From the NCBI GenBank assembly GCA_024639505.1, contig JAHEIE010000018.1, forward strand, positions 2,777-66,776: 64,000 nucleotides of DNA, written 5' to 3'. Each line of letters starts with the position of its first letter. The stretch's first letter is position 1. Below, in pieces: positions 9,065-32,101 of this stretch. The position numbers and the translations under genes were made by a program. Below the pieces are notes generated by a model. It had not been told where the DNA came from. It did not search any database and saw only the letters and a list, made by a program, of their open reading frames with translations. The DNA is from Crocinitomicaceae bacterium (GTDB lineage Bacteria > Bacteroidota > Bacteroidia > Flavobacteriales_D > CAJJDF01).

Positions 9065-9100
9065 TTTCAATACTCCCTTTTTTCAATTACAACTTTGCAA

Positions 9101-9134: not shown

Positions 9135-9155
9135 TAAACAATTTAAACTATCAAA

Positions 9156-18238: not shown

Positions 18239-21001
18239 TTAAAATTTATACCCAACAGATAGAGAAGTAAATACACCTCTTCTTGTGGAGTTAATCAAGA
18301 TTGGATCGTTTGGAGTTTCTTGCTCAAATCGGATATCTTGGTTGAGTAAGTTCTTCACTTTTACTCCAAAACTAAAATGCTTTAGTTCAATTCCAGCAAC
18401 CAAATTTAATGAGTTCACTGGCAATTCATACACATCTCCAAGTCCATAAATTCCTACGTTGTAGATTCTTCTTCCGAATACATTGTAAGATAAACTAGCA
18501 TTTACTTTTAAGTCTTTTTTCAATGTTCTTGAATACGCTAAATCTACATTAATCAAATAAGGAGAAGCTCCCTGAAGTGCTCTTTCGCTGTTGGTTTGCG
18601 CCAAATTTGCTTCTGGATCAAATGTTACTTTCGAGTACAAATAAGTTGCGTTTACCCCTAAAGAAACAAACTTCAAAAATGATGTATCTGATTTTGCTAA
18701 GAAAGATAATGATTTGGTATACTCAAATTCTAATCCTGCCACAGTCGCATTGCCTGCATTACGGAAAGATTGAAGTTGGTTCGTTGCAACCTCCATCGTT
18801 TTTTCAATCGGATTTATTAATTGTTTGTAAAAAACACCTACAGCCATAAATTCCCCTAATCTAGGGTATCTTTCGTACCTCAAATCAAAATTATAGTTCT
18901 CACCGTTTACCAATTCAGGGTTACCAACCGTAGTAGCTCCTGCAAACAATTCTGTGTATTGAAATGGTGCAACTTCCTTGAAACCTGGTCTTGAAATTGT
19001 TTTACTCGCTGAGAATCTCACGATATTTGTATCATTTGGCTGGTACTTCAAAATCAAACTTGGCAACACATCTGCCGATACAATTCTATTTATTCTTTTA
19101 AAATCTGGTTGTGTTTGGTCTAGGTAAGATATTTTTTGATCACTTAATTCTAATCGAGCTCCTGCAATCAATTCAAATTTTGGTGTAATGTTGTAATCTA
19201 CAAATCCATAAACAGCATTTATGTTTTGAGTTGCCAAATAGGCACTCGCTGGGTTTAGTGCTTCTTGAATACTAAACTCACCTGATTCATGCGAAGTTGG
19301 GTTGATGTATCCATCAGGATTAAGCACATCTAACGAGTTGTTTGTTAAGTTTAAGTCATATACGTATTGAGTAAAATCAAAATCTCTATTCTTTCTTTTT
19401 ATCATTCCCCCAGCTGTTAGAGCTAATTTTGCTCCATCTTCTACATTCTTAGTGTTGTATTTAAAAATGTACTTCGTTTCTAGTTTAGCACTCAATTGTC
19501 TTTCATTCAAATAAGAGAAAAACCTGTGATTTTCAATTCTGTCTGTTGCATTTATCGTGTAATCGTCTGTATTTTCCTTATCGTCATAAAAATAAACCAA
19601 CTGTCTTCTGTCTGGCTCGGTGCTATTTGCGTTGTTCAGTGCAGCCGACCAATTTACTCTCAATTTATTGTCTTTCATCAAAAAGTGTGAACCACTCAAC
19701 TGATTGTTCATTAAGTTGTTTTGCTTAAACGTGAACCTTCGGGCGTATACATTTCTTGCGTAATCCCAGTGCGAACCGTACACCTCTTTTGTTTGATCTT
19801 CCGAAGTATTTACATAAAGGAAGTTGTAAGAAATCAAATGATTTTCATTGATATCGAAACCTACACTTGCCATTGCCGAAGAGGAAGTACTTGTTGTATA
19901 ATCCTCAAAATCGTAATCAATTTGAATGTCTTCTTGGGTATTTATAACTCGGTATTTACCAAAAGAGTATCTGTTGTCATTCGAGTGATTCAACGTCACT
20001 AAGAAACCTATCTTAGATTTTTCGTTCTTTAGCTGATATTGATTCCCTGCAAACAAACCAAAACTAGAATTGGGTAAAGTGGTTTTAAAAACCGGATTCA
20101 AGTTAGTAGCAAATAATTCAGCATCTCCTTCAGTAGATCTGTATGCTTCTTGATTTGCGATAGCCACAGGAATTGATCTTGTTCCATCATCAAAACCCAA
20201 ATAATCTAACCTTCCTCCGTTGTAAGTCATTCTTTGTCTGCCAATGGATTGAGAATTAAATCCAGTTCCTAAAGAGATTTTAAACACTTTTTCGGAAGGA
20301 TAATCTTTCGTAGAAATATCCATTGCTCCTCCTGCAAAATCGCCCTCTAAGTTTGGCATAAATGCTTTTTTAATCGACATCGATTTAATAACACTTGTAG
20401 GGAATAAATCCAATGGAATTACTTTTTTATCTGGATCTGGTGATGCAATTGGCAAACCATTCAAATAAGCCGAATTATATCTATCTCCCATTCCTCTTAC
20501 ATACACATTTCCTGAACCCACAACTGACAAACCAACTACTTTTTTTGCTGCATCATCTGCGCTTGAAGCCCCAGTTTTTTCCATTTTTTCTGATCCAATT
20601 ACACTTTCTACTCCAGCAGCTCCCTTCGTTTCATTAATATCCATTGCCATGGAGCCACCCACAGCTCTGTCTACTACAGTAAATGTCTTTATCGTGGTAG
20701 AAGAAGACGATAATTCTATGGCTACAGGAACATTCTGATCCGTTACGGTCACAACCACTTCTTTGTTATCCAAACCTACTGAGGAAACCACAAGTGTGTA
20801 TGTTCCTTTAGAAACAGACAAACTAAATTTACCATCAAAATCTGTTGAGGCACCTTTACTTGTTCCTTTAATTAATACATTTGCAAATGGAACTGGCTCT
20901 ACCAAGTCGTCAGTTTTTCCTGTCACAACTCCATCGATGGAAAATTGTGAGTAACTTACCGAGGCGAAAACCAAAAAGGTGATAAATAGTACTTTTTTCA
21001 T
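18239..21001 (-). CDS. TonB-dependent receptor with N-terminal carboxypeptidase-regulatory-like domain
   Basis: 920 aa. Signal peptide, CarbopepD-like GVVTGKT...PFANVLIKGT, plug region, C-terminal ...SLSVGYKF beta-signal. Confidence 0.85.
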   Translation of the reverse strand: MKKVLFITFLVFASVSYSQFSIDGVVTGKTDDLVEPVPFANVLIKGTSKGASTDFDGKFSLSVSKGTYTLVVSSVGLDNKEVVVTVTDQNVPVAIELSSSSTTIKTFTVVDRAVGGSMAMDINETKGAAGVESVIGSEKMEKTGASSADDAAKKVVGLSVVGSGNVYVRGMGDRYNSAYLNGLPIASPDPDKKVIPLDLFPTSVIKSMSIKKAFMPNLEGDFAGGAMDISTKDYPSEKVFKISLGTGFNSQSIGRQRMTYNGGRLDYLGFDDGTRSIPVAIANQEAYRSTEGDAELFATNLNPVFKTTLPNSSFGLFAGNQYQLKNEKSKIGFLVTLNHSNDNRYSFGKYRVINTQEDIQIDYDFEDYTTSTSSSAMASVGFDINENHLISYNFLYVNTSEDQTKEVYGSHWDYARNVYARRFTFKQNNLMNNQLSGSHFLMKDNKLRVNWSAALNNANSTEPDRRQLVYFYDDKENTDDYTINATDRIENHRFFSYLNERQLSAKLETKYIFKYNTKNVEDGAKLALTAGGMIKRKNRDFDFTQYVYDLNLTNNSLDVLNPDGYINPTSHESGEFSIQEALNPASAYLATQNINAVYGFVDYNITPKFELIAGARLELSDQKISYLDQTQPDFKRINRIVSADVLPSLILKYQPNDTNIVRFSASKTISRPGFKEVAPFQYTELFAGATTVGNPELVNGENYNFDLRYERYPRLGEFMAVGVFYKQLINPIEKTMEVATNQLQSFRNAGNATVAGLEFEYTKSLSFLAKSDTSFLKFVSLGVNATYLYSKVTFDPEANLAQTNSERALQGASPYLINVDLAYSRTLKKDLKVNASLSYNVFGRRIYNVGIYGLGDVYELPVNSLNLVAGIELKHFSFGVKVKNLLNQDIRFEQETPNDPILINSTRRGVFTSLSVGYKF

Positions 21002-21142
21002 GTCTTTATTTATTTACTGCAAAGGACTTTGTTTCATATTAACCCAATGTTAACTCACTATTATGTTTATGTAGTTTTTTTCGTAGCGCTTTCAGGACTA
21101 AGAAAAAAAACCTTTTATTTGTTAAACAATTTTTAAATAAAC

Positions 21143-21823
21143 ATGAAGTCAAGCAAGATTTTATTGGTAGATGATGATGAGGATATTCTAGATTTATTGG
21201 AGTACAACCTTACCAAGGAAGGGTATTTAGTTCAGACAGCACTCAATGGGAAAAAAGCCATTGAAGTAGCGAATGAATTTCTTCCGGATTTAATAATCAT
21301 GGATGTAATGATGCCAGAAATGGATGGTATCGAAACTTGTGGTGAAATAAGAAAGAATAAATTACTATCCAATACCATCATAACATTCCTTACAGCTAGA
21401 GGCGAAGATTACTCCCAAATTGCTGGTTATGAAGCTGGAGCAGATGACTACATCACAAAACCGATAAAGCCCAAAGTACTTTTTAGCAAAATAAAAGGGC
21501 TCTTAAGAAGAGGCAATATTGAAGCAGAACTTGTAGAAGAAACTGCCTCGATGAAAATTGACAGAGAAAAGTACATCGTACTTCAAAAGGGAGTAGAAAT
21601 ATCTCTTCCAAAAAAAGAGTTTGAATTGTTGGCACTACTTATGTCAAGGCCGAATAATGTATTTACACGAGAAAAAATATTTGCCTCGGTATGGGGAGAC
21701 GATATCGTTGTGGGAGACAGAACAATCGATGTTCACATCAGAAAACTTCGCGAAAAAATAGGAGACGACTACATCAAAACAGTGAAAGGAGTTGGGTATA
21801 AGTTTGTGGAAATAGAAAGTTAA
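21143..21823 (+). CDS. OmpR/PhoB-family DNA-binding response regulator (no adjacent kinase)
   Basis: Receiver ILLVDDDEDI...DLIIMDVMMP and winged-helix C-terminus ...IKTVKGVGYKF. Confidence 0.9.
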   Translation: MKSSKILLVDDDEDILDLLEYNLTKEGYLVQTALNGKKAIEVANEFLPDLIIMDVMMPEMDGIETCGEIRKNKLLSNTIITFLTARGEDYSQIAGYEAGADDYITKPIKPKVLFSKIKGLLRRGNIEAELVEETASMKIDREKYIVLQKGVEISLPKKEFELLALLMSRPNNVFTREKIFASVWGDDIVVGDRTIDVHIRKLREKIGDDYIKTVKGVGYKFVEIES

Positions 21824-23334
21824 ATTTGATTTTCTAAGTTTTTAACAATTTCTATTGTTGATCCATAGACATCTTCTCCTAACATCTTGGCTTTGAGCCA
21901 AGCGAAAAAACTCAATACAAATATATCTTCTTCGTACCTGGGTTTCTTCTCCAGTTTAGATTCTACAAATCGATGGAAGTGGGTGTTTTTTGCCTGAAAA
22001 GGATTTGAAACTACCTTTTGGATACAAATAAGAAAAAATAAAACCCTTTGATTCTCTGATAAAAATCGTTGATTATCAACTTCAAAACGAGTAATTAACC
22101 CTTCGCTGATCTCTATGTTTCCTAGCTCAAAATGAGTTAGAATTAAAATTAAGTTTTTTCTTAAGACCCATTCCAACCCATTTATTTCTATGAATTGTTT
22201 GTCAGTTTTTTTGAAATCGTGATAAAGTTTTAAAATGTATGAATATTTTTTTCCATGAAATAAAATCATTGACATCACTCCAAAACCATCCATCCAGTTT
22301 TTATTCGATTTAGGTAGTTTAGAAGTTTTGAGTAGTCCATTTAAGATCTCAAAAGCTTGCTTATTTTCGCCCAAATAATTAATATTTAATGATTTTAACA
22401 CGACTATCTTGAAGTGAAACTCATACGATAGAGCTACTCTTTTTGTTCTGGATAGTTTTAATATTCGATTCAAATAATCATTACTTTTTTTGAATTTTTT
22501 TGCCCTGTAATTAGCCGTTGATAATAAATAAAACAACTTGAACTTAAATGTCCATTGCCCAGAATTTTTTGGCTGTTTGGCATTCACAATTCGCTCTATT
22601 CTTTTCTCAAAATTATAAAGGTCCGCCACAAATGTTCTGGAAAAAGTAGATGCCGCAAAAGTAAGTTGAGCTAGCTGATACAATGCTCGGTAATTCAAAT
22701 CTCGATCAATTGAGATGTTTTGAGAAGAAAATAATTCTTCGATTTTATGCAGTACTTCGGCAGAGTTGCTTTTTTTAAAATAGGTATTCATTTCTTGTTT
22801 TACCTGAGCGTAGATTATCGCAATACTGTTCTGCTTTGATTCAATTTTTTTTAAAGATTTGTGCTTCAGCATTAACTTTTCAAGATCTAGGTCAGAATTA
22901 AGATGTGCGAATTGAATTAACTCAAAGATTATTTTTTCTGTTAAATCTGTAAAATCATTGTGCTCTGACTTGTTTAATGCCTTGTTGAGGCATTCAAAAC
23001 CCAGCTTATACTTTTTATTTAGCACTAGTTTTTTTCCAGCCTCAAAATGCAATTGAATGTCTTTTTGTTCTGCATCCAATTCTTTGTCCCTATGAGTTGC
23101 ATAATATTCTAAAACTAGATGGGTAAGCCTTTTTCTTAGGGCATAAAATGCCATGTTGGGATAAGTACCATATAGCTCTTCACAAATAACTTTTGAAGTA
23201 TAGCCATTGTAAATTAGGGTTAGAAAAGAATTAAGTTTTGTGTCTTTTTTACTCGTTGAATTTTTGACAAAAAGCTTAAAATGATGCTTTTCTTCTTTGT
23301 TAAATTCTTGAATTAATTGGAATGGACTGGTCAT
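21820..23334 (-). CDS. 504-aa all-helical cytoplasmic protein, possible HTH plus TPR-like regulator; last gene of the seven-gene operon
   Basis: No signal peptide. N-terminal segment YTSKVICEELYGTYPNMAFYALRKRLTHLV is HTH-like. The rest is a helical repeat. No family recognised. Confidence 0.55.
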   Translation of the reverse strand: MTSPFQLIQEFNKEEKHHFKLFVKNSTSKKDTKLNSFLTLIYNGYTSKVICEELYGTYPNMAFYALRKRLTHLVLEYYATHRDKELDAEQKDIQLHFEAGKKLVLNKKYKLGFECLNKALNKSEHNDFTDLTEKIIFELIQFAHLNSDLDLEKLMLKHKSLKKIESKQNSIAIIYAQVKQEMNTYFKKSNSAEVLHKIEELFSSQNISIDRDLNYRALYQLAQLTFAASTFSRTFVADLYNFEKRIERIVNAKQPKNSGQWTFKFKLFYLLSTANYRAKKFKKSNDYLNRILKLSRTKRVALSYEFHFKIVVLKSLNINYLGENKQAFEILNGLLKTSKLPKSNKNWMDGFGVMSMILFHGKKYSYILKLYHDFKKTDKQFIEINGLEWVLRKNLILILTHFELGNIEISEGLITRFEVDNQRFLSENQRVLFFLICIQKVVSNPFQAKNTHFHRFVESKLEKKPRYEEDIFVLSFFAWLKAKMLGEDVYGSTIEIVKNLENQI

Positions 23335-23358
23335 AAAATTGAATTACCCGTTACGTTA

Positions 23359-23853
23359 TTATAAATTCAGACTATATAAGTAACCTAATTTAAAACCAAT
23401 AGCCCTAGATTTTAAGATGTCTGTAGTGTTTGTATAGCTTTGAAAGCCATCGTTTAGGTAATGCTTATTGAATAATCCATGATAGTAATCAAATGAAAAG
23501 AACAAAGAATGTGTTGTATTTAGTTCATATCTAGCAGAAATTCCTGATAATAGCTCAATGTTAAATGTATTTGTATACTCAAAAGGACTTTTTTGGTCAA
23601 CAATTAATTGGGTGTTTTCTCTGTTTATGGTATAGGTAGAATCTTGGTGATTTAATTCTCCTTTTTCTGTTGCTTCAATATGATATACTTCATAACCATT
23701 AGCTATCAGGCTCAATGAAACACCTACTTTTGGAAGTAAGGTTAGTTTTTCTTTGAATGTGTAGAGTGAATATTGAACGGAAAGATTAGTTCTTATAAAA
23801 TCAACGTAATAGAATTCATTTAAAGTGGAGTTTAGGACTGTGTTTGTTTTCAT
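23359..23853 (-). CDS. 164-aa beta-strand-rich protein without signal peptide (barrel-like, possibly the C-terminal part of a split or frameshifted barrel)
   Basis: Its ATG overlaps the upstream stop (ATGA, 23850-23853). Alternating hydrophobic pattern, ends GFKLGYLYSLNL. Confidence 0.5.
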   Translation of the reverse strand: MKTNTVLNSTLNEFYYVDFIRTNLSVQYSLYTFKEKLTLLPKVGVSLSLIANGYEVYHIEATEKGELNHQDSTYTINRENTQLIVDQKSPFEYTNTFNIELLSGISARYELNTTHSLFFSFDYYHGLFNKHYLNDGFQSYTNTTDILKSRAIGFKLGYLYSLNL

Positions 23854-24572
23854 AATTTTAAATTATGAAAATTAAAAATTATTGATACATTCACTCCATA
23901 AAAGTTACTTCTGAAAGAATGAGGGTTCACCATAGAATATTCCTTCAGTGATTCAAAAGGTACTTCACTATTTGTATTTAGATTACCAAATCCTGTTAAA
24001 TAATTAAGGGTGAGCTGTATATCAAATTTTTTATTTAGCTTAACTCCACCACCAATAGCTCCTTCAGAAAAAAACTCTTCTAATCTCAATTTATTATTAT
24101 TTCTATCTATTGTGTTTTTTGAAACAAATGAATTATTAATGATGTCATATTCATTTAAGTCATAAGTTCCTTTAATAAATGTCCCCACACCTACTCCAAT
24201 TTTAATAAGCCCATAAAACCTATCTGGATTTCCAAGTTTTCTAGAAAATGAGGCGGAGAATCTGAGATAATTTAGTTTTGATTTAACTCTATAGTCTGAA
24301 CCATCACTCATTCTTTGTACCCAAAATAAATCGTTATTTGAAAGTATACTGGGTTTTAGGATTATACTATTTTTACTTGTCCAATGATGCTCAAATGGGA
24401 CTGAGAAATAAGCTGTATTTCCATTTATAGGAAAGAATTTTTCTGGACTACCAGAACCATAGAGCCTATTATTATTTTTGTAGAGACCAGCCTCAATACC
24501 AATACTATTATTACTCTGGGCAAAACCAAAAAAACCAAAAAAAAGGAATATTATGTTGATTGATATTTTCAT
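23850..24572 (-). CDS. 240-aa small outer-membrane beta-barrel-like protein
   Basis: Signal peptide MKISINIIFLFFGFFGFAQS. Beta-strand periodicity. C-terminal YGVNVSIIFNF... resembles an OMP beta-signal. Confidence 0.6.
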   Translation of the reverse strand: MKISINIIFLFFGFFGFAQSNNSIGIEAGLYKNNNRLYGSGSPEKFFPINGNTAYFSVPFEHHWTSKNSIILKPSILSNNDLFWVQRMSDGSDYRVKSKLNYLRFSASFSRKLGNPDRFYGLIKIGVGVGTFIKGTYDLNEYDIINNSFVSKNTIDRNNNKLRLEEFFSEGAIGGGVKLNKKFDIQLTLNYLTGFGNLNTNSEVPFESLKEYSMVNPHSFRSNFYGVNVSIIFNFHNLKL

Positions 24573-24574
24573 AT

Positions 24575-25816
24575 TTATTTTTCTTTAATGCATATAATAT
24601 TATTCCCAGCAGTACAATAAATATAACCATTAATAGGGTCGATATCCATATATTGATAAGAACCTCCCACGCCTTCAGCAAGTAATTCACGAGTGAGTAT
24701 TTGTTTTACAATCTCTCCATTCCCATCTAATTTATACAGCCCAGCTGTAGAGGTTAGGTAAATATGGTTGTTGTATTTTTTCATATTTGGAGACCAATTA
24801 TCAAACCCCATCGTGTTATTATAATTTTTATGTAAAGATCCATCACTTGTATTGATGATGTTGAGGTTGTAGTTATTACCTAGCGATTGCAATAACTTTC
24901 CATTAAGTATAAGCATTATTCCTTTTCCAGTTCTTTTAGAAGCAGAAACTTGAGTTCGCCAATTAATTGTTTTGTTTTGAAGGTTTAAAGATGACGAGCC
25001 AATAAAGCCTCCGTGTATAAAAACTATATTACTTTCAATTATTGGAGAGGACCCAATTGCACCATAGTTAAAATAACTTCCTAAATCCCAATACATGCTG
25101 TCGTTTGTGATGTCAATAGCAAAATATTCTCCTCTTTCAGTTGTAATACTAGGTTTATAGCCGATACTTTGCGTAAATATTATCTCATTTCCATTAGGAT
25201 GCTGATAGTACACCATTCCTTTTGGAGCTTGATTAAAACCATTTCTACCACTTCCATACAATGTGAATTTTTCAATAGAGCTACCGTTTACAGGATTTAT
25301 CGTGTATAATTTTGTGCTATCTCCCACTATTCCTCCTCCCAAATCGAAAAAAGCATATATTTTGTTATTTGCATAAATAAAATCGTTTAGTGTTTTGTTG
25401 CTGTTTCCATTTATAGACCATAAAATATTTCCACTAGTCACATCAATGCATCTCAAATCACCCTGTCCATCGAAATACAATTTATTGCCTATTAATAGTT
25501 GCTTTCTGTTACTCCCTTGATTATACTTAGCCCATAAAGTATCACCGGTAACTTTATCTAATGCTATAATAGTTTCGCTGTTTCCGAACCCTGCAGGATC
25601 AAGAAAGTAAATAACGTTAGAGGGAGTTACCACTGTAGAGTAACAAGTAAAACCCGTTGAACTTCTTTTATTCCATACTAGCTCAAAGTCTTCATTGAAG
25701 TCAGTTTTAGTAGAACCCGAAGTACAATCGGGTTCTAGTGTAGGCTCTTTTTTGCAACTCATCCCGAATTGCAAAAAGAGTAAAATAGCAAATACAATGT
25801 AAACCAATATTCTCAT
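24575..25816 (-). CDS. Beta-propeller (PQQ-like/BamB-like repeat) lipoprotein, paralogue 2
   Basis: Lipobox LLFLQFGMSC. Repeated xTGDxLW / TSGNILW motifs. Ends CIKEK. Paralogous to 25817..27052. Confidence 0.6.
   Translation of the reverse strand: MRILVYIVFAILLFLQFGMSCKKEPTLEPDCTSGSTKTDFNEDFELVWNKRSSTGFTCYSTVVTPSNVIYFLDPAGFGNSETIIALDKVTGDTLWAKYNQGSNRKQLLIGNKLYFDGQGDLRCIDVTSGNILWSINGNSNKTLNDFIYANNKIYAFFDLGGGIVGDSTKLYTINPVNGSSIEKFTLYGSGRNGFNQAPKGMVYYQHPNGNEIIFTQSIGYKPSITTERGEYFAIDITNDSMYWDLGSYFNYGAIGSSPIIESNIVFIHGGFIGSSSLNLQNKTINWRTQVSASKRTGKGIMLILNGKLLQSLGNNYNLNIINTSDGSLHKNYNNTMGFDNWSPNMKKYNNHIYLTSTAGLYKLDGNGEIVKQILTRELLAEGVGGSYQYMDIDPINGYIYCTAGNNIICIKEK
25742..25786. repeat. 45-nt segment shared with 26960..27004 (copy in paralogue 2)
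   Basis: Hand alignment gives 44/45 identical. It contains a 12-bp stem (25745-57 with 25769-80) around the lipobox codons. Confidence 0.85.
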
Positions 25817-27052
25817 TTATTTTTCTTTGATGCAAACAAAGCTGTAACCTCTTGTAGTGTATATATAGCCATTTGAAGGATCCACATCCATTCCACTTTG
25901 AGGACCTCCAGCAGTTTCACCAACATACTCAGAGAAATGTAAGTTTTGAATCATATTGCCGGTAGATGTTTCTACTATTCCCAATACATCAGTGGTAGTA
26001 AAATATACTTTATTATTGAAAAATCGTAATGGACTACCTCTGAAATTAGTCCCTATTCCTGAATAGGTTTTAAGTTGGTTGCCATTTAATAAATTCAACA
26101 CGTTAAAGTGGCCAAAGTTACCTACTTCTTTAAATAATTTACCATCTGCTATCACAGCATATTTTCCTCCAGTTTGGCTTGCTGTTGGTTCAGACACTTT
26201 CCAATTAGTTGACTTTGTTACTAGGTTAAGAGAAGCTACTCCTGCAAAACCACCACTAATATAAATGTTGTTTCCTTCCAATAAAGGAGTAAACCCTCTT
26301 GCAGAAGTATTAAAGTAGTTACCCAAGTCCCAGTACATACTATCTCCAGTAATATCAATTACAAAATAATCGCACCTTCCAACGCTTACATTCACACCAG
26401 TACTTTGGGCAAAAATAATTTCATTTCCATTTGGATGCTTCCAATAGGCTATTCCTCTGGGAGATTGACTGTATCCTGCTCTATCAGAGGTATAGACGGA
26501 ATAAAGGTGCATTGCAGAGCCACTAAGTGGATTTATCTTATACAAAGCAGTACTATCTGCTGAGTTGCCTTGATCAAAAAAAGCATAAATACTTCCATCG
26601 GCATACACATAATCAGATAAATATGCAGGGCTAAATCTCCAAACTTCATTTCCTGTTGAAGGATCGATGCACACTAATCTCTCATCAATATCTGAATAAA
26701 TATAATTACCTATTAATCTATGATTATTTGTGCCTCCAGTGGCATCTCTGTGCCATAAGGTATCTCCAGTAGATTTATTAAAAGCCACCATATAATCATT
26801 GTGTCCCGCTCCTTTCCATGTCCAGTAAATCACCTCATTGGGTGTTACAATTGTAGCTCTGCAACTGAAAACTTCATTCACCTTTACATCCCATATTAAG
26901 TCAAAGTTTTTATTCACTTTTACTGATGGATTTTCAGAGTTCTCGCAAGGCGCTATAGAAGGCTCTTTTTTGCAACTCATCCCGAGTTGCAAAAAGAGTA
27001 AAATGCTCATTAATATACTTGTCATTTGTATCATATTTTTATTTATTACCAT
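25817..27052 (-). CDS. Beta-propeller (PQQ-like/BamB-like repeat) lipoprotein, paralogue 1
   Basis: Lipobox LLFLQLGMSC. STGDTLW / STGNEVW repeats. Ends CIKEK. The ATG at 27052 overlaps the upstream gene by 7 nt; alternative ATGs lie at 27034 and 27025. Confidence 0.6.
   Translation of the reverse strand: MVINKNMIQMTSILMSILLFLQLGMSCKKEPSIAPCENSENPSVKVNKNFDLIWDVKVNEVFSCRATIVTPNEVIYWTWKGAGHNDYMVAFNKSTGDTLWHRDATGGTNNHRLIGNYIYSDIDERLVCIDPSTGNEVWRFSPAYLSDYVYADGSIYAFFDQGNSADSTALYKINPLSGSAMHLYSVYTSDRAGYSQSPRGIAYWKHPNGNEIIFAQSTGVNVSVGRCDYFVIDITGDSMYWDLGNYFNTSARGFTPLLEGNNIYISGGFAGVASLNLVTKSTNWKVSEPTASQTGGKYAVIADGKLFKEVGNFGHFNVLNLLNGNQLKTYSGIGTNFRGSPLRFFNNKVYFTTTDVLGIVETSTGNMIQNLHFSEYVGETAGGPQSGMDVDPSNGYIYTTRGYSFVCIKEK
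26960..27004. repeat. 45-nt segment shared with 25742..25786 (copy in paralogue 1)
   Basis: The single difference is A/G in the loop (Phe/Leu codon). The surrounding genes are far more diverged. Confidence 0.85.
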
Positions 27053-28788
27053 TTATGTAATCTAAAGAATTCAGGCATCGTAACATCATCGCCATTATAG
27101 ATTTTTCTGAGTGCATCGTCTGTTTCAATACAATTTCGCATTTGTAGATGATTTACTTTTCCTCGAGACATTCCACCCCCTGGCAATGGAACAGGTCCCA
27201 TGAAATTTTTATAATCATCAATACAACCTGGAAAAGCTTTTGCTGATGAAGCCAATACTGTTGCATCACTAGGGGTTTCTATTAGAGTTTTCTTAGTAGT
27301 AACTTCTAATTCATATGTAACATCATACTGTGTATAGATTGTTGATGTATAGGTTTGTGTCCAGCTTGTATCGTTGGGGCAATTCCCTGTTGAATTGAAT
27401 GTGCTTACTCTAGGTACGGTTGTAGTAAGATTACCATTATTATGAAAGGTAACGGTTTGTTTTTTTATGCAACGATAGCTTACAGTATCAATGAGGTATA
27501 AATTACTATCATTAACTGCTCCAATTATTGCTTTGTACTTTAGATTTACCTTATTTAGCTCCTGGTGTAATGCCATAAAGTCTCTTGAAATTAATTTTGT
27601 AACTCCATAGCGCGCCATATCACTATTCGATTTACCTATTCCCCTCCAAAAAGCGTAGAATCTTTTTGCTCTAGATAAATGCCAGTCTGCATGTCCTTTG
27701 TAAACATAGGACCATGCTTTTGCGTCTATTCGCATTTTTTCCATCGCATTTGCCAATTTGCTATCCTCATTTGCACCGAAAGTAGAAAAAGTATTAGGGC
27801 CGTTTACTAAGTAATAAGCCATTCTCCATAAAATAGGGTCTTCCTCCTGTCCCCAAAAAAGCGCTTTAGCAAGTTTTGGGTTAATGTATTGGTTTAACGT
27901 ATCGGTTAGATAAGTTGAGGTAGGGGTAAATTGTTTACCAATAGGATCTGTTTGGTCTTTAGTAAATTGGGTTAAAATTTTAGCTGCTAGAGAGTCGGCA
28001 AAATAATTGCCAATTTTACTTGGAGCTGTACTTAAAGCTCCTGTTCCAATAAAAGTTTGTGCTACCCATGGTAATCCTGTAATTAATTTATCTATTACAG
28101 TATCTAAACTTACTGCTAAAATTTTCCCTGCTAAATCTCCTCCTAAATGAGCTAATTCTTGCTGATTTCCAACGATTTCTGCACCTGCATGAGGGGACCC
28201 GAATGTAACGAGACCATAAAAATGTCTCTCTCCAGCTCTTATCAGAGGATCATAAAGATTACTAGAGTCATGTTTCATGTCCATATCTCTTGCTATTAAC
28301 CCACCCAAACTATGTGCTATTGCATAAGGTCTTGATACAGTATCAAAACCAGATGGGTAACCAAGTTTATATGAGCTAAGCTTAACTCCCATTTCTGTAT
28401 ATGCTTCGAAAGTAGCATTTGAAAAACTACTTTGATTTCCATAATAATCCAATTTGTAGGGTGCATATCTAAACTCTCGCACATGAGCATTATATGTTCT
28501 ATTCCAAGAAGTTTCATTACCACCTAATCCATGAATAAAATAAATTGGTCTAATAGAGTCTTTAAATCCTGCACGGTTTGTGCCTGAAGAAAAATACAAA
28601 GCTGTATCATCCCTCAATCCATTAGTCCAATCATGAACAACAGAGTCGAGTTTTGGTTTTATTATGGTTGATACTGATTGTGATTCAAATGGCTTATTAA
28701 GTTCTTTTACTTCGGGGTCTATTTGTGAAAGTCCCGAACTGGTTACTGCTATTAGCAGCGCAATTAATATGAGTTTTATAGTTTTCAT
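27046..28788 (-). CDS. Secreted alpha/beta-hydrolase with lipase-type nucleophile elbow and ~250-aa C-terminal region of unknown fold
   Basis: Signal peptide. IYFIHGLGGNETSW (oxyanion HG-like), AIAHSLGGLIA (A-H-S-L-G pentapeptide), FGSPHAGAE. Confidence 0.65.
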   Translation of the reverse strand: MKTIKLILIALLIAVTSSGLSQIDPEVKELNKPFESQSVSTIIKPKLDSVVHDWTNGLRDDTALYFSSGTNRAGFKDSIRPIYFIHGLGGNETSWNRTYNAHVREFRYAPYKLDYYGNQSSFSNATFEAYTEMGVKLSSYKLGYPSGFDTVSRPYAIAHSLGGLIARDMDMKHDSSNLYDPLIRAGERHFYGLVTFGSPHAGAEIVGNQQELAHLGGDLAGKILAVSLDTVIDKLITGLPWVAQTFIGTGALSTAPSKIGNYFADSLAAKILTQFTKDQTDPIGKQFTPTSTYLTDTLNQYINPKLAKALFWGQEEDPILWRMAYYLVNGPNTFSTFGANEDSKLANAMEKMRIDAKAWSYVYKGHADWHLSRAKRFYAFWRGIGKSNSDMARYGVTKLISRDFMALHQELNKVNLKYKAIIGAVNDSNLYLIDTVSYRCIKKQTVTFHNNGNLTTTVPRVSTFNSTGNCPNDTSWTQTYTSTIYTQYDVTYELEVTTKKTLIETPSDATVLASSAKAFPGCIDDYKNFMGPVPLPGGGMSRGKVNHLQMRNCIETDDALRKIYNGDDVTMPEFFRLHKW

Positions 28789-28830
28789 AATGTGTAGCTT
28801 AATATAATAAATAAAAAATTAATGTCGATT

Positions 28831-29865
28831 TTAAGGAATGTACATAAAAGTACAAGCAGGAACTGTTTGGTTTATTACTTCTATTATGTGAATCCCAAAT
28901 TGTAAATTCTCGGCAAAGAATAATGGATTGGCTTTCGAAACTTGAATGTTTTCCATTTTAATATTTCCTTGCATGTCTCTTACTCTTATTATAAAATCTG
29001 ATTCTGGACAGCTTTCTTCAAAAGTGAGTTGTATTTCTTGCGAACCACCCAATTGACTGGCAGATATACAGGAGTTAATTTCCTCTCCAGGATATTCAAC
29101 TTCTGGTTCTAAAGCTGGGTCAATAAAAGTTCGCACAATATTTTCATAATTAACGGAGTTCACGGTTTCCACGTAATCGTTGATACTAGAGTCGTAAGAT
29201 AAGCTCCTGTGCACTTCGTAATCCATCAATAAATGTCCTGATGCATCTCTTTGATAAGCAATAGTTGATTTTTCGATGTCTTGCAAACCGTCATTTACTG
29301 TCACTTCTTCTATCATGAGCTCTGCATTATAATAGTAGGTAGTTTCGTCAATCTTATATTCTAAGCTTAATTCCGTATTGGTTTTTATCTGTGCCCCTTC
29401 TCCTTCTAGGGCAAATACTTCTTCGTCAGAGATAGGCAGTTTCCAAAGCGGAGTAGCTAAATAATAAGAAGCAGCTTCTTCAGCAGGGACTAACTCTTGA
29501 GGTTGCAAAGCAAACCTAGAATAAATAACATCTCCCACATAGACAAAAGCACTGTCCTTTGTGATTTCAGTTTTAGTGGGTTTAACCAACCATTCTTCTG
29601 GTAACCCAATAGGAAATGAATGAAGAATTGTCTTTTCGACTGAACCGTCCGAGTAAATAATCTCAGAAAATTCGTCTTCGGTAACGGTAGGCATGTACTT
29701 TATTTTGTTGTACAAGCTCAAGTTTTCTTTGATGGATTCGTTAATATTATAACTAGCGGTGTTGACAGTAGTGTAAGACACTTGCATGGCTTCGTGGTCG
29801 TTTTGAGCGAAACAAAACATACCACCAATTAAAAACAAACTGGTAAGTATTATTTTCTTTTTCAT
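28831..29865 (-). CDS. Secreted hypothetical protein, first gene of the operon, with diverged T9SS-CTD-like tail
   Basis: Signal peptide MKKKIILTSLFLIGGMFCFAQ. Acidic body. The C-terminal IRVRDMQGNIKMEN...LQFGIHIIEVINQ resembles a sorting domain but lacks the YPNP motif. Confidence 0.55.
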   Translation of the reverse strand: MKKKIILTSLFLIGGMFCFAQNDHEAMQVSYTTVNTASYNINESIKENLSLYNKIKYMPTVTEDEFSEIIYSDGSVEKTILHSFPIGLPEEWLVKPTKTEITKDSAFVYVGDVIYSRFALQPQELVPAEEAASYYLATPLWKLPISDEEVFALEGEGAQIKTNTELSLEYKIDETTYYYNAELMIEEVTVNDGLQDIEKSTIAYQRDASGHLLMDYEVHRSLSYDSSINDYVETVNSVNYENIVRTFIDPALEPEVEYPGEEINSCISASQLGGSQEIQLTFEESCPESDFIIRVRDMQGNIKMENIQVSKANPLFFAENLQFGIHIIEVINQTVPACTFMYIP

Positions 29866-29974
29866 GATGTTTTGATTTTTAGGTTAAAAAAGGTTTCAAT
29901 ATTGAACAGTTAGATAGTGTTAACAGTGTCGAAACTAGCCAACATCATTCACATAAAAAAACAACCTTAAAAAA

Positions 29975-30015
29975 AATTGATTTATATATTTTTTTTTAAA
30001 AATTGTAAATCAATT
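29975..30015. promoter_or_regulatory. 10-bp perfect inverted repeat AATTGATTTA-N21-TAAATCAATT in the operon/rfbA divergent region
   Basis: Arms at 29975-84 and 30006-15, read directly. A second 7-bp repeat TGTTACT/AGTAACA lies at 30076-82 and 30095-101. Confidence 0.5.
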
Positions 30016-30186
30016 ATATAATAGTTATAAATTAGATATGAAAATAAATGAAATAAATTTTTGAGAATGTATTTATGTTACTGATTGAAATAATAGTAAC
30101 ATCATGAACACACGGCATTTACTGAATTAGTTTGTACATCCTTGAAAGAAAGCTTATTTTAGCATTTCAAAAACGACCCATTCACC

Positions 30187-31062
30187 ATGAAAGGAATAAT
30201 ATTAGCAGGAGGTTCGGGAACTAGGCTTCACCCGCTCACATTAGCAGTAAGCAAGCAATTAATGCCAGTTTACAACAAGCCTATGATTTATTATCCATTG
30301 GCAACTCTTATGAGTTCTGGGATAAGAGAAATATTAATCATTTCTACCCCACAAGACCTACCAAATTTTGAGAAATTGCTTGGAGATGGAAGTCAAATTG
30401 GTTGTTCCTTTTCTTATAAAGTTCAAGAAGTACCAAATGGATTGGCTCAAGCTTTTGTACTAGGTGAAGAATTTATTGGAGACGATAGTGTTGCGCTTAT
30501 TTTGGGAGACAATATTTTTTACGGTGGAGATTTATCTAAAAATCTTCAAGAGCAAGTAAACCCAGATGGCGGAGTTGTTTTTGCTTATCATGTTTCGGAT
30601 CCAGAAAGATACGGAGTAGTAGAATTTGACTCGGATATGAATGCGATTTCTATTGAAGAAAAACCAACAAAGCCCAAATCAAATTATGCCGTTCCGGGAT
30701 TATATTTTTATGACAATTCGGTAGTAGAAATTGCCAAGAATATAAAACCAAGTGCTAGAGGAGAATACGAAATTACAGATGTAAACAACGAATACCTTAA
30801 ACAAGGAAAACTAAGTGTTTCCATTCTCGATAGAGGAACAGCTTGGCTAGATACAGGAACTTTTCACTCCTTGATTCAGGCGAGTCAATTTGTGCAGGTA
30901 GTTGAGGAAAGACAAGGATTAAAAATTGGTTGTATTGAAGCTGTTGCTTATGCAAGAGGTTTTATTGATAAAGAGCAACTAAGAACAATCGCCACTCCGT
31001 TGCTAAAAAGCGGATATGGAGATTTTTTGATGGCATTAATAAAAGAAGAAGAGGAAAACTAG
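30187..31062 (+). CDS. rfbA: Glucose-1-phosphate thymidylyltransferase
   Basis: [18 protein letters not shown] and full-length RmlA-like sequence. Confidence 0.95.
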
Positions 31063-32010
31063 ATGGAAGGAAAAGCACTCATTGAAAAAGAATTAAACAA
31101 CTATTTAAAGCAGTTTGAACACCACGGATTGTACGAACCAATTTCTTATTTACTGAATATTGGAGGAAAAAGAATAAGGCCAATTATTTTGTTGGATGCT
31201 GTTGAACTTTTTGGAGGAGACAAAAAAGCAGCCTTGCCCTTGGCGCTTGCCGTTGAGGTTTTTCACAACTTTACCTTAATGCACGATGACATCATGGACA
31301 ACTCTTCGCTGCGAAGAGGAAAACCAACGGTTCATGAAAAATGGAATGTAAATAACGCTATTCTTTCGGGTGATACCATGATGATTCAGGCATACCAACT
31401 CCTAGAAAAAGTTCCTGTTGAATTTCAACCAGCTATTTACAAAGCATTTAATAAAATGGCGCTTTGGCTGTGCGAAGGCCAGCAAGATGATATGGACTTT
31501 GAAGAAAGATCTGAAGTTTCTATTCCAGAATATCTTCAAATGATAAAGAACAAAACTTCGGTTCTTATTGGATTTTGTTTTGAAGCCGGTGCAATTTTAG
31601 GAAAAGCTGATGCGGCTGTTCAAGAAAAAATATACGATTTTGGTATCAATCTTGGCTTGGCTTTTCAACTTCAGGACGATTATTTGGATTTGTATCCAAA
31701 AAGTACAAAAATGGGGAAAACCATAGGAGGTGATTTGCTAAACAAAAAGAAAGCTATCCCCTATTTGATTGCTCTAAACTCAGCAAACTCCGACCAAAAG
31801 GAAGCCATTGAAACACTGATCAATTCTCAGGACGAAAATAGAGTAGAAAAATTAACCGCATTATTTGCAAAGCTAGCTGTGAAAGAGCAAACAGAAAAAA
31901 TGATTGAAGAGTACTTTCAAATCTCAAACGAAAGTTTGGAAAGTATTGAAGGATTCAACTTGACTCCAATACAATTATTTGCCAAAAACCTGATGGCAAG
32001 AGAGCAATAA
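31063..32010 (+). CDS. Polyprenyl diphosphate synthase (trans-IPPS family)
   Basis: First and second Asp-rich motifs LMHDDIMD and LQDDYLD. ATG immediately follows the rfbA stop. Confidence 0.9.
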   Translation: MEGKALIEKELNNYLKQFEHHGLYEPISYLLNIGGKRIRPIILLDAVELFGGDKKAALPLALAVEVFHNFTLMHDDIMDNSSLRRGKPTVHEKWNVNNAILSGDTMMIQAYQLLEKVPVEFQPAIYKAFNKMALWLCEGQQDDMDFEERSEVSIPEYLQMIKNKTSVLIGFCFEAGAILGKADAAVQEKIYDFGINLGLAFQLQDDYLDLYPKSTKMGKTIGGDLLNKKKAIPYLIALNSANSDQKEAIETLINSQDENRVEKLTALFAKLAVKEQTEKMIEEYFQISNESLESIEGFNLTPIQLFAKNLMAREQ

Positions 32011-32101
32011 AACACATCGCAAAAAAGCGCAAAATCTGGGGAATTGAGATTAGTAATTCACGCTGAAAAAGCCTATATTTGTCTTCCTTAAAACCCCTCA
32101 G

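Follow-up and report, generated by a model that had tools for sequence, protein, structure and literature searches.

Four adjacent minus-strand genes, P1 to P4 (24575-29865), probably constitute a polymorphic effector-immunity cassette with an orphan immunity gene, of a type found mainly in Bacteroidota; judging from sequence, we put the probability of this reading at about 0.6. They lie in the window, that is, the whole 64,000-nucleotide stretch of a Crocinitomicaceae contig analysed here. It is the combination of allele replacement, joint variation of hydrolase and adjacent propeller, and retention of orphan propellers that points to such a cassette. Moreover, the module is conserved, its hydrolase is exported, its propellers are mostly lipoproteins and a T9SS cargo is encoded in the window; the hydrolase varies in its surface insertions and not in its catalytic core, and the cassette is both mobile and dispensable. 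The cassette swaps alleles between near-identical strains as toxin-immunity pairs do, and represents a testable candidate for T9SS-linked bacterial warfare. We found no description of it in the searchable literature, and the gene combination, which an earlier note on this DNA could not assign to any named system, has no name in Pfam, NCBIfam, PADLOC or the literature searched.

Gene content of the cluster and its conserved unit

The gene content, the catalytic residues, the signal peptides and lipoprotein signals, and a gene order that is conserved across Bacteroidota are directly supported. The seven minus-strand open reading frames that the earlier note took for one operon are all present in the ORF list at exactly the coordinates claimed, and we obtained the same junctions between them (42, -7, 0, 2, -4 and 24 nt). 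An AT-rich intergenic region (29866-30186; GC about 0.32) separates P1 from a divergently oriented glucose-1-phosphate thymidylyltransferase-type gene (NTP_transferase; 30187-31062) and is the presumed promoter region; no sigma-70-type promoter stands out within it, promoter-like matches being no commoner than in shuffled sequence, and neither strand carries an exact copy of the Bacteroidetes TAnnTTTG promoter motif. PADLOC returned no defence-system match in the cluster, in agreement with the earlier opinion that this is not a defence island. Nor is it a PUL, as had also been said: the conserved module has no SusC/SusD pair, and no transporter or catabolic gene was found in it.

In a comparison set of about 100 related loci (referred to below by L numbers), the conserved unit has three parts, a P1-type partner of roughly 350 aa, an exported lipase-like hydrolase and one to four full-length propeller lipoproteins. 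A propeller gene lies directly downstream of the hydrolase, on the same strand, in 42 of the 44 Bacteroidota loci whose downstream DNA extends for 1.3 kb or more (the median gap is about 2 nt, and many genes overlap by 4 nt), and a same-strand partner ORF lies just upstream of it in 49 of 56 loci, at distances ranging from a 44-nt overlap to 105 nt and mostly of 2-40 nt. Given this recurrence, the arrangement exceeds chance for part of the cluster. The earlier reading depended on homologues co-occurring elsewhere, and those of the first three gene types do so across Bacteroidota; the seven genes are not one system, however, because the P5 and P7 profiles match nothing among 63 species-representative loci. 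A single propeller is found in 24 of 29 species-representative genomes, and propeller fragments occur within the arrays of L012, L054 and L042. The cassette adjoins an integrase or transposase gene in L009 and L012 and occupies another chromosomal site in L108; L093 has lost the entire cluster by deletion, only the last 89 codons of P7 surviving, and an inversion disrupts the hydrolase alone in L081.

P2 (27046-28788, minus strand; 580 aa), the proposed effector, is a lipase-like alpha/beta hydrolase with the predicted triad Ser160/Asp508/His547. The lipase-type elbow noticed earlier is A-H-S-L-G-G at residues 158-163, and Ser160 is invariant in the alignment of 25 sequences from which the invariant residues were read; the oxyanion motif is H-G-L-G-G (residues 86-90), Asp508 lies within S-D-x-x-V and His547 within N-H-x-Q-M-R-N. 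The hydrolase signal peptide has an invariant Gln at the cleavage site in the alignment. Two large helical insertions (about 204-300 and 343-425) and one of beta structure (about 426-505) interrupt the protein, and it is in these that variation is concentrated (31-33% identity, versus 51-58% in the core). P2 passes the Pfam profile DUF676 (26.8 bits; cut-off 20.3) and belongs to a family of about 500 clusters at 50% identity (E <= 1e-30; 1.84 billion representatives searched). A PDB sequence search revealed a weak resemblance to family I lipases (1tah, 1cvl/2es4 and 1qge being best; 2es4 is a lipase-foldase complex), and its AlphaFold2 model (pLDDT 78) retrieved only generic alpha/beta hydrolases with Foldseek (best E = 4e-3). 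Neither search produced a match to a solved Tle effector.

P1 (28831-29865, minus strand; 344 aa), the exported partner protein, starts with a signal peptide that ends in A-Q, followed by a new N-terminal domain; where a T9SS type A sorting domain would stand, it has a diverged 7-strand beta-sandwich. The whole protein has no match among Pfam and NCBIfam profiles, and its tail fails both TIGR04183 and PF18962 and aligns weakly with canonical CTDs (E = 0.005, probability 7%). The T9SS-CTD-like tail proposed in the earlier note is supported only indirectly, by the TIGR04183 matches of partners elsewhere and by modelled strands. The N-domain of P1 is homologous to that of the upstream partners at other loci (hhalign probability 99.1%, E = 8e-19), of which 40 of 48 match TIGR04183, the T9SS type A sorting domain, and match solved CTD structures in the PDB; residues 265-344 of the AlphaFold2 model form seven strands with a pLDDT of about 80, the remainder of the model being poor. 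A canonical T9SS type A cargo is encoded elsewhere in the window (3729-4760; 63 bits), and the organism therefore very probably has a T9SS.

The two propeller lipoproteins are P3 (25817-27052, minus strand; 411 aa), which adjoins the hydrolase and is the proposed cognate immunity protein (lineage A), and P4 (24575-25816, minus strand; 413 aa), the product of the proposed orphan immunity gene (lineage B). Both pass the PQQ_2 profile PF13360 (51.3 and 31.0 bits, respectively; cut-off 27.6), and the earlier description of them as diverged lipoproteins holds, since they are 43% identical and each has a signal peptide followed by Cys (Cys-K-K-E-P in P3). The start of P3 is ambiguous, gene callers having given 405 or 397 aa on identical contigs, and with either of these starts the 7-nt overlap with P2 becomes a small gap. 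A signal peptide plus Cys is present in 59 of 64 full-length propellers, and in 15 of these 59 the lipidated Cys precedes an acidic pair similar to the signal for surface export in Bacteroidetes (PMC5080379), so that the location of the propellers is not uniformly periplasmic; P3 and P4 lack this two-acidic-residue signal. The propellers resemble no known immunity family. Like BamB, P3 and P4 are outer-membrane-type lipoproteins that pass PF13360, but they reach only 18-29 bits against the BamB equivalog models (cut-offs 285-423 bits), which rules them out as BamB orthologues; the PQQ_2 fold that they share with BamB says nothing about function.

Allele replacement and co-variation within the genus

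Comparisons within the genus, where the flanking genes are 84-100% identical and the hydrolases 37-68%, directly support allele replacement that sets in sharply at the start of the hydrolase. Between the window and L006, for example, proteins encoded in the flanks share 84-98% identity, whereas the hydrolases share 37% and the P3 proteins 43%. L005 and L006 share 96.5% DNA identity over 10,012 bp, through nucleotide 12 of the hydrolase ORF, after which identity falls below 70%. L016, a contig of the same species, matches the window in megablast over the first 21 nt of the hydrolase and again from the start of P4 onwards, the hydrolase-to-P3 segment being the sole part of the region missing from the alignment. 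L005, L006 and L106 each have a different hydrolase allele, with no more than 39-47% identity between them; P1 is 96-97% identical among the same three loci, and P5 and P7 are 98-99% identical between L006 and L106. Among sister strains P1 is 74-85% identical, while their hydrolases are only 39-68% identical; P1 is, on these figures, the part of the cassette that stays constant.

That the hydrolase co-varies with its adjacent propeller is likewise directly supported: across the 7 genus-level loci available, two of them with partial propellers, the identities of the two proteins track each other (r = 0.83, Mantel p about 0.001), whereas hydrolase and P1 identities do not (r = 0.16, not significant). 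P3 is 67-78% identical to the first propeller of L005 and L105, which carry the related hydrolase group, but only 39-45% identical to the first propellers beside other hydrolase alleles. With the lone propeller of L016, which adjoins the hydrolase, P4 shares 86% identity; with the first propellers of L106 and L108, found alongside hydrolase group B, it shares 70-83%. Lineage B thus adjoins hydrolase group B in L016, L106 and L108, and both the window (as P4) and L006 have it as an additional, distal copy; lineage C supplies the adjacent, cognate copy of L006 and a distal copy of L106. Its dN/dS being 0.12 in the comparison with L016 and 0.09 in that with the third propeller of L006, P4 is, as far as these sequences go, directly seen to be under purifying selection.

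Proposed mechanism, related systems and alternative explanations

We propose that P2, as a lipase- or esterase-type serine hydrolase, would be exported to the periplasm by Sec, with cleavage by signal peptidase I, and would then leave the cell with, or by means of, the co-encoded P1, whose relatives are T9SS type A cargo. Once outside, P2 may damage the envelope lipids of competing relatives, and P3 would bind and neutralise the producer's own hydrolase allele, chiefly at the periplasmic face of the outer membrane, protecting producer and kin. P4 may have been retained as an orphan immunity gene because sister strains in the same populations carry its target allele. New hydrolase and propeller pairs would recombine in just downstream of the constant P1, displacing the old hydrolase and leaving the old immunity gene in place. 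Toxicity, substrate, target organism, binding of propeller to hydrolase, T9SS dependence and the role of P1 are what we infer in this scheme. The failure of the P1 tail in sorting-domain profiles speaks against it, as does the hydrolase, which has no sorting domain itself and no evident domain for crossing the outer membrane of a target cell; to our knowledge, there is no established precedent for co-transport of a partner through the T9SS.

Several known systems share features with the cassette. The T7SS lipase TslA of Staphylococcus aureus, a secreted antibacterial lipase encoded with tandem DUF576 genes, resembles it in having an array of paralogous lipoprotein immunity genes, but differs in its Gram-positive host, T7SS secretion and unrelated protein families. 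T6SS Tle/Tli systems likewise combine a serine hydrolase bearing a GxSxG-type elbow with a proposed attack on membrane lipids, and have tandem and orphan immunity copies too. In contrast to T6SS effectors, which lack a Sec signal peptide, the hydrolase here has one; T6SS genes are absent nearby, and the hydrolase matches no solved Tle in sequence or fold. As in Tle/Tli, an immunity lipoprotein that must reach the periplasm is encoded directly downstream, although Tli of E. cloacae is an ankyrin-repeat protein and the candidate here a PQQ_2 beta-propeller (10.1101/2023.03.28.534661). Zhang et al. (2012; PMC3482391) remarked on the lack of known beta-propeller immunity proteins; PefD-PefE of Proteus mirabilis has since been cited as a precedent for a predicted one (10.1101/2023.03.28.534661), in which PefD is a T6SS PAAR effector and not a lipase. 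TANFOR-class polymorphic toxins are also restricted to, or found mainly in, Bacteroidetes and, like the hydrolase here, have an N-terminal signal peptide, lack a sorting domain of their own and are encoded beside CTD-bearing T9SS substrates; their export by the T9SS is only hypothesised, as it is here (Jana et al., 2020; PMC7073777). However, profile searches found no TANFOR domain in the cassette, the hydrolase fold is always the same whereas in TANFOR proteins the C-terminal toxin domains can be exchanged, the neighbour with a CTD comes from one specific family of homologous partners and is encoded immediately upstream, and the immunity candidates are exported lipoproteins.

We regard it as unlikely that P2 is an ordinary secreted lipase or esterase for which the propeller serves as a periplasmic steric chaperone, secretion factor or anchoring factor, in a Lif-like arrangement. 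The Lif foldase gene adjoins family I.1/I.2 lipase genes, LipA-type lipases have H-S-x-G-G and S/N-D-G-x-V type motifs as P2 does, and the best, though weak, PDB sequence matches of P2 are family I lipases, including 2es4; here too, a dedicated envelope-anchored partner is encoded immediately downstream. As most species have a single propeller, an obligate two-protein partnership fits equally well, one hydrolase being translationally coupled to one propeller in the 24 of 29 single-copy loci, and a specific chaperone would likewise co-vary with its client. Lif is helical, however, and the propellers are unrelated to it; the partner here is a beta-propeller lipoprotein, often in several diverged copies, P2 has about 300 extra residues in helical and beta insertions of its AlphaFold2 model, and lipase-foldase operons do not display the allele replacement and orphan-copy pattern. 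A chaperone would leave unexplained the distal propellers that match the cognates of other strains and are under purifying selection, the arrays of three or four intact paralogues plus fragments, and a hydrolase of 37-68% identity at a fixed locus amid flanks of 84-100%.

Rather improbable as well is the view of the earlier note, a surface complex for ester or lipid harvesting or outer-membrane remodelling, serving nutrition or envelope maintenance and made up of a T9SS-displayed binding protein, the hydrolase, surface propeller lipoproteins and a small outer-membrane protein, with variability that reflects substrate range or the pressure of phages or grazers on surface proteins. Every component is indeed an envelope protein, the small outer-membrane-protein-like gene recurs in several loci, 15 of 59 propellers have the acidic pair resembling an export signal, and in the nutrient systems of Bacteroidota duplication and variability of surface lipoproteins are common. 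Yet the propellers of the window lack that signal, the catalytic core is conserved while surface insertions vary, nothing in the conserved module is a transporter, SusC/SusD pair or catabolic gene, and the cluster is dispensable, some sister strains having lost it or carrying it in disrupted form. Lipid processing or outer-membrane remodelling leaves the allele replacement, the co-variation and the retained orphan propellers unexplained, and allele-specific pairing, with orphans matched to the alleles of other strains, is not expected of a nutrient system. Still less probable is a hydrolase directed against a eukaryote (algal host, grazer or animal) or a phage, with propellers guarding the membranes of the producer only during export: export of the hydrolase and its link with a T9SS cargo partner would suit this, and such cis-protection is documented for other secreted effectors, whose immunity proteins protect the producer from its own toxin in transit (PMC10933484), but in-transit protection needs the cognate propeller only, and intact propellers matching sister-strain alleles imply exposure to the hydrolases of other cells. 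That the seven genes are closely packed neighbours of unrelated function, forming no system, is very improbable indeed; P5, P6 and P7 are not conserved with the others outside the genus, but partner, hydrolase and propeller stay together in tens of Bacteroidota genomes that are only distantly related, a conserved linkage that already contradicts this explanation for P1-P4.

Genes downstream of the propellers

The earlier protein descriptions were mostly right, in that the signal-peptide protein, the secreted hydrolase, the two propeller lipoproteins and an outer-membrane-protein-like protein are all borne out; the HTH-like N-terminus of P7 is not. P5 (23850-24572, minus strand; 240 aa) is beta-rich, with a signal peptide and no significant profile match. 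Genes of similar size and features come after the propellers in at least 7 distant loci, to which P5 has a marginal hhalign link (E = 1e-3). The gene in its position is called PF13568 OMP_b-brl_2 in L105 and matches PF13505 at 2.7e-4 in L011, and L082 has two P5 paralogues; the P5 profile itself matched nothing outside the genus. P5 is an accessory that recurs with the cassette without being universal, and it resembles a small outer-membrane protein. P6 (23359-23853, minus strand; 164 aa) is a doubtful ORF that cannot be extended upstream and lacks a signal peptide; its sole profile match is a weak one to the C-terminal part of OMP_b-brl_2 (E = 0.041, 14.4 bits; cut-off 27), and it does not resemble P5. 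L016, L081 and L082 have this ORF and L006 lacks it; it has the highest dN/dS of the region (0.45), and may be a remnant or a lineage-specific gene. Both P6 and P7 probably lie outside the mechanism proposed above.

P7 (21820-23334, minus strand; 504 aa), a helical protein whose gene adjoins the conserved cassette without belonging to it, has TPR matches that are all sub-threshold, and no profile supports an HTH. The notion that it is the cluster's own regulator is unsupported, because its homologues in other flavobacteria (498 aa, 28-30% identity) adjoin YiaAB and the histidine-biosynthesis genes hisIE/hisF, with no hydrolase or propeller nearby; on such comparisons, P7 is a member of a wider flavobacterial family and not a dedicated regulator. 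In other lineages, BetR-like regulators, to which P7 is unrelated, are encoded divergently upstream of the cassette. P7 may nevertheless have some association with the cassette, given that in L105 a 32%-identical copy sits upstream of P1 instead.

Gene layout and the conserved part of the cluster

The seven minus-strand ORFs of the cluster, here called P1 (28831-29865), P2 (27046-28788), P3 (25817-27052), P4 (24575-25816), P5 (23850-24572), P6 (23359-23853) and P7 (21820-23334), are reproduced by the ORF list, as are the junctions of 42, -7, 0, 2, -4 and 24 nt described in the earlier note; judged from this spacing, single-operon transcription is plausible. Scans of the region upstream of the cluster for sigma-70 promoter and terminator consensus sequences and for the Bacteroidetes TAnnTTTG element gave nothing above background. 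The GC content across the cluster (0.28-0.39) is unremarkable for the window. The start of P3, a 411-aa ORF, is ambiguous, and gene callers give 405 or 397 aa on identical contigs. At the other end of the cluster, P7 (-) and the response-regulator gene (21143-21823, +) converge, and their stop regions share 4 nt (21820-21823), as they also do in the related loci L006 and L106 and in L016, a contig of the same species.

With Pfam and NCBIfam profiles, P1 matches no family; P2 passes the threshold of DUF676 (PF05057, putative serine esterase; 26.8 bits, cut-off 20.3) over residues 84-205 only, with Abhydrolase_6 below threshold; P3 and P4 both pass that of PQQ_2 (PF13360; 51.3 and 31.0 bits, cut-off 27.6); P5 has no match; P6 has a weak partial match to OMP_b-brl_2 (14.4 bits, cut-off 27) and P7 sub-threshold TPR matches only. 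The contexts of the hydrolase were mapped, with HMMs built for this analysis, in metagenome loci and in 63 loci from species-representative genomes. The hosts among the latter are mostly Bacteroidota (Flavobacteriales, Saprospiraceae, Lewinellaceae, Chitinophagales, Owenweeksia, Cryomorphaceae and the cultured Dyadobacter tibetensis and Phaeocystidibacter luteus), the weakest partial matches coming from other phyla. A propeller gene lies on the same strand directly 3' of the hydrolase gene, often with a 4-nt overlap, in 42 of the 44 loci where 1.3 kb or more of downstream DNA is present. Where at least 6 kb follow, the propeller is single in 24 of 29 loci, with a maximum of four copies. Just 5' of the hydrolase, mostly after a gap of 2-40 nt, 49 of 56 loci carry a same-strand ORF, typically of 340-380 aa, and a divergent BetR-like HTH gene stands upstream of the module in 12 of 43. 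Several distant loci also have a small gene for an outer-membrane-protein (OMP)-like product with a signal peptide (~235-240 aa) 3' of the propellers. The conserved unit is thus composed of three gene types, partner, hydrolase and propeller, and the profiles of P5 and P7 match nothing outside the genus. The earlier note had read all seven genes as one system, and this part of its interpretation does not hold. Its view that the cluster is neither a polysaccharide utilization locus (PUL) nor a defence system does hold, since none of the syntenic loci has a gene called as SusD-type and none of the seven proteins matches any PADLOC model at E ≤ 1. The TonB-dependent receptor gene (18239-21001) is preceded by the response regulator and followed by a gene for a beta-helix protein.

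The genes downstream of the propellers are more variable. Neither P5 nor P6 reaches the threshold of OMP_b-brl or OMP_b-brl_2; the positional equivalent in locus L105 is called as OMP_b-brl_2 (PF13568) with no mark of a weak or faint match, and a 317-aa equivalent in L011 matches PF13505 at 2.7e-4. We considered P6 as a duplicated half of P5 and rejected this, as the two share no similarity. Two tandem P5 paralogues of 242 and 240 aa, with identities of 29% and 78% to P5 of the window, are found at 637-2090 of L082, so that the OMP-like gene also varies in copy number. Small glycine-rich membrane proteins (166-190 aa) are encoded 3' of the propeller arrays in two distant loci, L011 (15121-15621) and L012 (16411-16983), and are 37-39% identical to each other; L012 also has two weakly propeller-like 419-aa paralogues (74% identical) and propeller fragments within its array. 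P7-like proteins, 28-30% identical, adjoin YiaAB and his genes in other marine flavobacteria, where the module is absent. This occurrence beside his genes, together with hhalign comparisons, led us to reject P7 as the counterpart of the upstream BetR-like regulators. A 32%-identical P7-like gene upstream of P1 in L105 makes a loose association of P7 with the module possible.

The hydrolase, its partner and the type IX secretion system

The lipase-type elbow that the earlier note saw in P2 is borne out by an alignment of 25 hydrolase homologues, in which the triad Ser160, Asp508 and His547 is invariant, as are the H-G-x-G-G oxyanion motif and the A-H-S-x-G-G motif containing Ser160. P2 has a cleavable signal peptide, and the Gln directly after it, also invariant in the alignment, agrees with the 'Q-rule' described for signal peptidase I substrates of Bacteroidetes. 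An AlphaFold2 model (pLDDT 78) has an alpha/beta core into which helices and beta-hairpins totalling about 300 residues are inserted, and a disordered N-terminal segment (residues 19-71); Foldseek against the PDB returned generic alpha/beta hydrolases only (best E = 4e-3), and a PDB profile search gave nothing at E ≤ 1 beyond generic hydrolases and weak matches to family I lipases. Because its match is weak and partial, P2 belongs to a distinct subfamily with large insertions, and by its profile score is only a marginal member of DUF676. An exhaustive HMM search of 1.84 billion representatives at E ≤ 1e-30 found about 500 clusters at 50% identity, nearly all matching end to end; on this measure the family is small and distinct.

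The mean identity among hydrolase alleles is 31-33% in the insertions (residues 204-300 and 343-505), 51-58% in the core and 56% in the disordered N-terminal segment. Residues 23-75, next to the signal peptide, have a pLDDT of 30-45, a prediction of disorder, and among divergent alleles their conservation equals that of the catalytic core; they contain the near-invariant motif L-D-S-x-x-H-D-W-T-N-G-L-R-D-D-T-A-L-Y and may be a docking, translocation or import element. Some long hydrolase homologues were considered as natural fusions of partner and hydrolase, but they give no Rosetta-stone support: P0131 is an apparent deletion chimera in which the partner protein, through the start of its T9SS C-terminal sorting domain (CTD), is joined to the middle of a hydrolase and the N-terminal hydrolase core is missing, while P0121 and P0134 carry an N-terminal extension of 260-300 aa, unrelated to the partner, with two Cys-rich repeats (D-S-Y-G-D-G-I-C-C motif).

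The T9SS is the main two-step secretion route of Bacteroidota. Of 48 positional homologues of P1, 40 match TIGR04183, the T9SS type A sorting domain (E ≤ 0.01), and the profile of the partner family matches solved CTD structures, including the separate 75-residue chains 8glj and 8glk, which we take to be CTD complexes with the T9SS translocon. P1 of the window, as a whole protein or as its last 89 residues, matched neither TIGR04183 nor PF18962 at E ≤ 1. Its N-domain is homologous to that of the CTD-bearing partners (hhalign probability 99.1%, E = 8e-19), a relationship that emerged once the alignment was deepened and N-domain and tail were treated apart; an initial profile-profile comparison between the P1 family and two distant partners was not significant. 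The AlphaFold2 model of P1, built from 8 close homologues, has a pLDDT of 51 and only its C-terminal 80 residues are usable, Foldseek on the whole low-confidence model being uninformative. In that part, residues 267-342 form seven beta strands (pLDDT ~80), and the tail aligns in register with canonical CTDs, albeit weakly (E = 0.005, probability 7%). A gene elsewhere in the window (3729-4760, +) encodes a canonical T9SS type A cargo of 343 aa (63 bits for TIGR04183, cut-off 23), which is indirect evidence that the organism would use a T9SS.

P3 and P4 are not members of the BamB family: they score 17.6-29 bits against the BamB equivalogs TIGR03300 and NF008351, whose cut-offs are 285-423. A signal peptide followed by Cys is present in 59 of 64 propellers. 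The Bacteroidetes surface-export signal C-X-K-(D/E)2 requires an acidic pair (PMC5080379), and among these 59 propellers 15 have it, a mixed picture. Both propellers of the window read C-K-K-E-P, without the required pair, which suggests that P3 and P4 face the periplasm. P4 is under purifying selection (dN/dS 0.12 and 0.09).

Replacement of hydrolase alleles and orphan propellers

In several closely related genomes the locus lies between an NTP_transferase (RfbA-type) gene and the response-regulator/TonB-receptor pair. The comparison of the window with L006 gives identities of 84-98% for the flanking proteins, ~75% for P1, 37% for the hydrolase, 43% for P3, 73% for P4 (whose counterpart in L006 is the third propeller), 58% for P5 and 67% for P7. 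The boundary of the divergent part is abrupt. L005 and L006 share 96.5% DNA identity over 10,012 bp that end at nucleotide 12 of the hydrolase ORF, beyond which they are barely alignable. Likewise, L016 (95% DNA identity) matches the window until 21 nt into the hydrolase gene and resumes at the start of P4, with 90% identity; it carries a different hydrolase allele, and its single propeller is orthologous to P4. L005, L006 and L106 each have a hydrolase allele of their own, with no more than 39-47% identity among them, despite a P1 that is 96-97% identical across the three, and P5 and P7 are 98-99% identical between L006 and L106.

The adjacent propeller co-varies with the hydrolase. Among seven genus-level loci, the identity of the hydrolase correlates with that of the adjacent propeller (r = 0.83, Mantel p ~0.001); no correlation is seen with the identity of P1 (r = 0.16). 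One propeller lineage (A: P3 of the window, the propeller of L005 and the first of L105) goes with one group of hydrolases, group A. A second lineage (B) adjoins hydrolase group B in L016, L106 and L108, and is found as a distal extra copy in the window, where it is P4, and in L006. A third (C) takes the position next to the hydrolase in L006 and a distal one in L106.

In some genomes the module is found at other sites or is lost. In L108 a cassette of P1, hydrolase and propeller genes (5578-9324) stands at a different chromosomal site, directly 3' of the rpoA/L17/carA/enolase genes, with a P1 65% identical to that of the window, which implies that the module can relocate; in L009 and L012 it lies beside integrase or transposase genes. 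In the related strain L093 the whole P1-P7 cluster has been deleted from between the RfbA-type gene and the response regulator (1328-1820), leaving only the last 89 codons of P7 (90% identical), within which the deletion ended; the cluster is thus a dispensable island. Synonymous divergence between the window (18239-33457) and L016 is a mosaic, with dS of 0.017 for MgtE, 0.07 for P5, 0.33 for P7, 0.45 for the TonB receptor, 0.66 for the RfbA-type gene and 0.82 for a polyprenyl synthase, and saturation for the response regulator, and indicates frequent recombination across the whole neighbourhood, beyond the cassette.

A sister-strain lineage found in three different samples (L081, also L014, L015 and L017) carries a clean 14.5-kb inversion. 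Its junctions, at 5730/5731 and 20209/20210 of L081, correspond to ~12925/12926 of the window and, within the hydrolase ORF of L016, to a point ~210 nt from the start. The hydrolase is interrupted after about 70 codons and an MscS-type channel gene is truncated; in the inverted strains the propeller, P5, P6 and P7 are intact and the body of the hydrolase is 99.99% identical to that of the uninverted L016. A programmed switch was considered and rejected, as there are no inverted repeats at the junctions.

A putative effector-immunity cassette

A candidate immunity gene immediately downstream of the hydrolase, co-varying with it independently of the P1 background, is what is expected of an effector and its immunity protein, as are allelic replacement at a conserved locus and orphan propellers that match the alleles of other strains. 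The combination of a constant upstream gene, an abrupt boundary, a co-varying lipoprotein and matched extra copies is a recognised effector-immunity signature. There is a parallel with the Tle/Tli pairs of the T6SS, which also join a lipase-type serine hydrolase to an exported lipoprotein partner, and whose immunity lipoprotein must be periplasmic (10.1101/2023.03.28.534661). However, the hydrolase of the cassette is Sec-exported, its upstream family is T9SS cargo, and T6SS genes (vgrG, hcp, PAAR linkage) were not seen near it in the window or the related loci, where its neighbours are housekeeping genes, the response regulator and the TonB receptor. P2 does not group with Tle1-Tle5 in the PDB profile search (E ≤ 1) or in Foldseek, both of which returned no Tle match; the PDB should include the solved structures of Tle1 and Tle4. 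Judged by these and the profile, gene-context and PADLOC searches above, the cassette falls outside the Tle families, BamB, PULs and PADLOC defence systems. Nor is it a classical polymorphic toxin, in which a conserved N-terminal trafficking region is fused to interchangeable toxin domains of different folds (Zhang et al., 2012): all alleles have one hydrolase fold end to end, and what stays constant is encoded by a gene of its own, P1. Among published ideas, the closest is that of the TANFOR toxins of Bacteroidetes, a class with a signal peptide and no CTD, encoded beside CTD genes and hypothesised to use the T9SS (PMC7073777). Zhang et al. (2012) noted that no beta-propellers were known as immunity proteins (PMC3482391); since then a report, cited in a later study (10.1101/2023.03.28.534661), has described PefE of Proteus as a predicted propeller immunity protein. 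Literature searches for T9SS-linked lipase-immunity systems and for propeller immunity to lipases found no matching description.

On the strength of the four-feature signature, the parallel with Tle/Tli and an upstream family of T9SS cargo, we propose, with a probability of about 0.6, that the cassette encodes a secreted lipase effector linked to the T9SS, to which the propeller lipoproteins confer immunity. The propeller could instead be a helper that assists the hydrolase, in the manner of Lif, and the single propeller found in most species fits a chaperone or anchor role equally; such a role leaves the presence of orphan propellers unexplained. The same pattern is left unexplained if the proteins form a surface lipid-harvesting complex, as the earlier note proposed, if the hydrolase acts on a non-bacterial target, or if there is no system at all and the seven genes are mere neighbours, and it is the main observation for which these alternatives do not account. 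The comparative evidence for a putative effector-immunity cassette is, in our view, unusually coherent. Possibly, though we think it rather unlikely in this specific form, the CTD-bearing P1 family acts as a carrier that takes an antibacterial lipase, itself lacking a CTD, out of the cell, with the propellers as allele-specific immunity proteins whose orphans accumulate in populations. A mechanism for import of the hydrolase into target cells is not evident, and we know of no precedent for carrier-mediated T9SS export.

Effector-immunity cassettes are familiar as a general kind; what we propose as new is that this one is made of three families not described before and is tied to a secretion system for which the delivery of antibacterial toxins would be new. 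A use of the T9SS in bacterial warfare has so far been put forward only as a hypothesis, for the TANFOR toxins (PMC7073777), and the cassette, with three to four genes, is a compact and widespread test case. The natural allele series and its matched orphan propellers predict which propeller neutralises which hydrolase, and the proposal is in this respect falsifiable. If the effector-immunity explanation is true, a partner or carrier domain, an insertion-rich lipase subfamily and a propeller-type immunity lipoprotein are three new families, and the strain-level diversity of the locus in marine Flavobacteriales populations is accounted for. If the carrier reading is also true, the T9SS is directly involved in interbacterial competition, and 'piggyback' export and beta-propeller lipase inhibitors join the known repertoire. 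Were the effector-immunity explanation wrong, the data would still define a conserved and unnamed envelope module of the Bacteroidota.

Elsewhere in the window, the methionine synthase MetH is apparently split: its N-terminal homocysteine-binding part (332 aa) is encoded at 44086-45084 (+) and the remainder (895 aa) by a separate ORF at 45870-48557 (+), with a 153-aa ORF (45277-45738, +) between the two.
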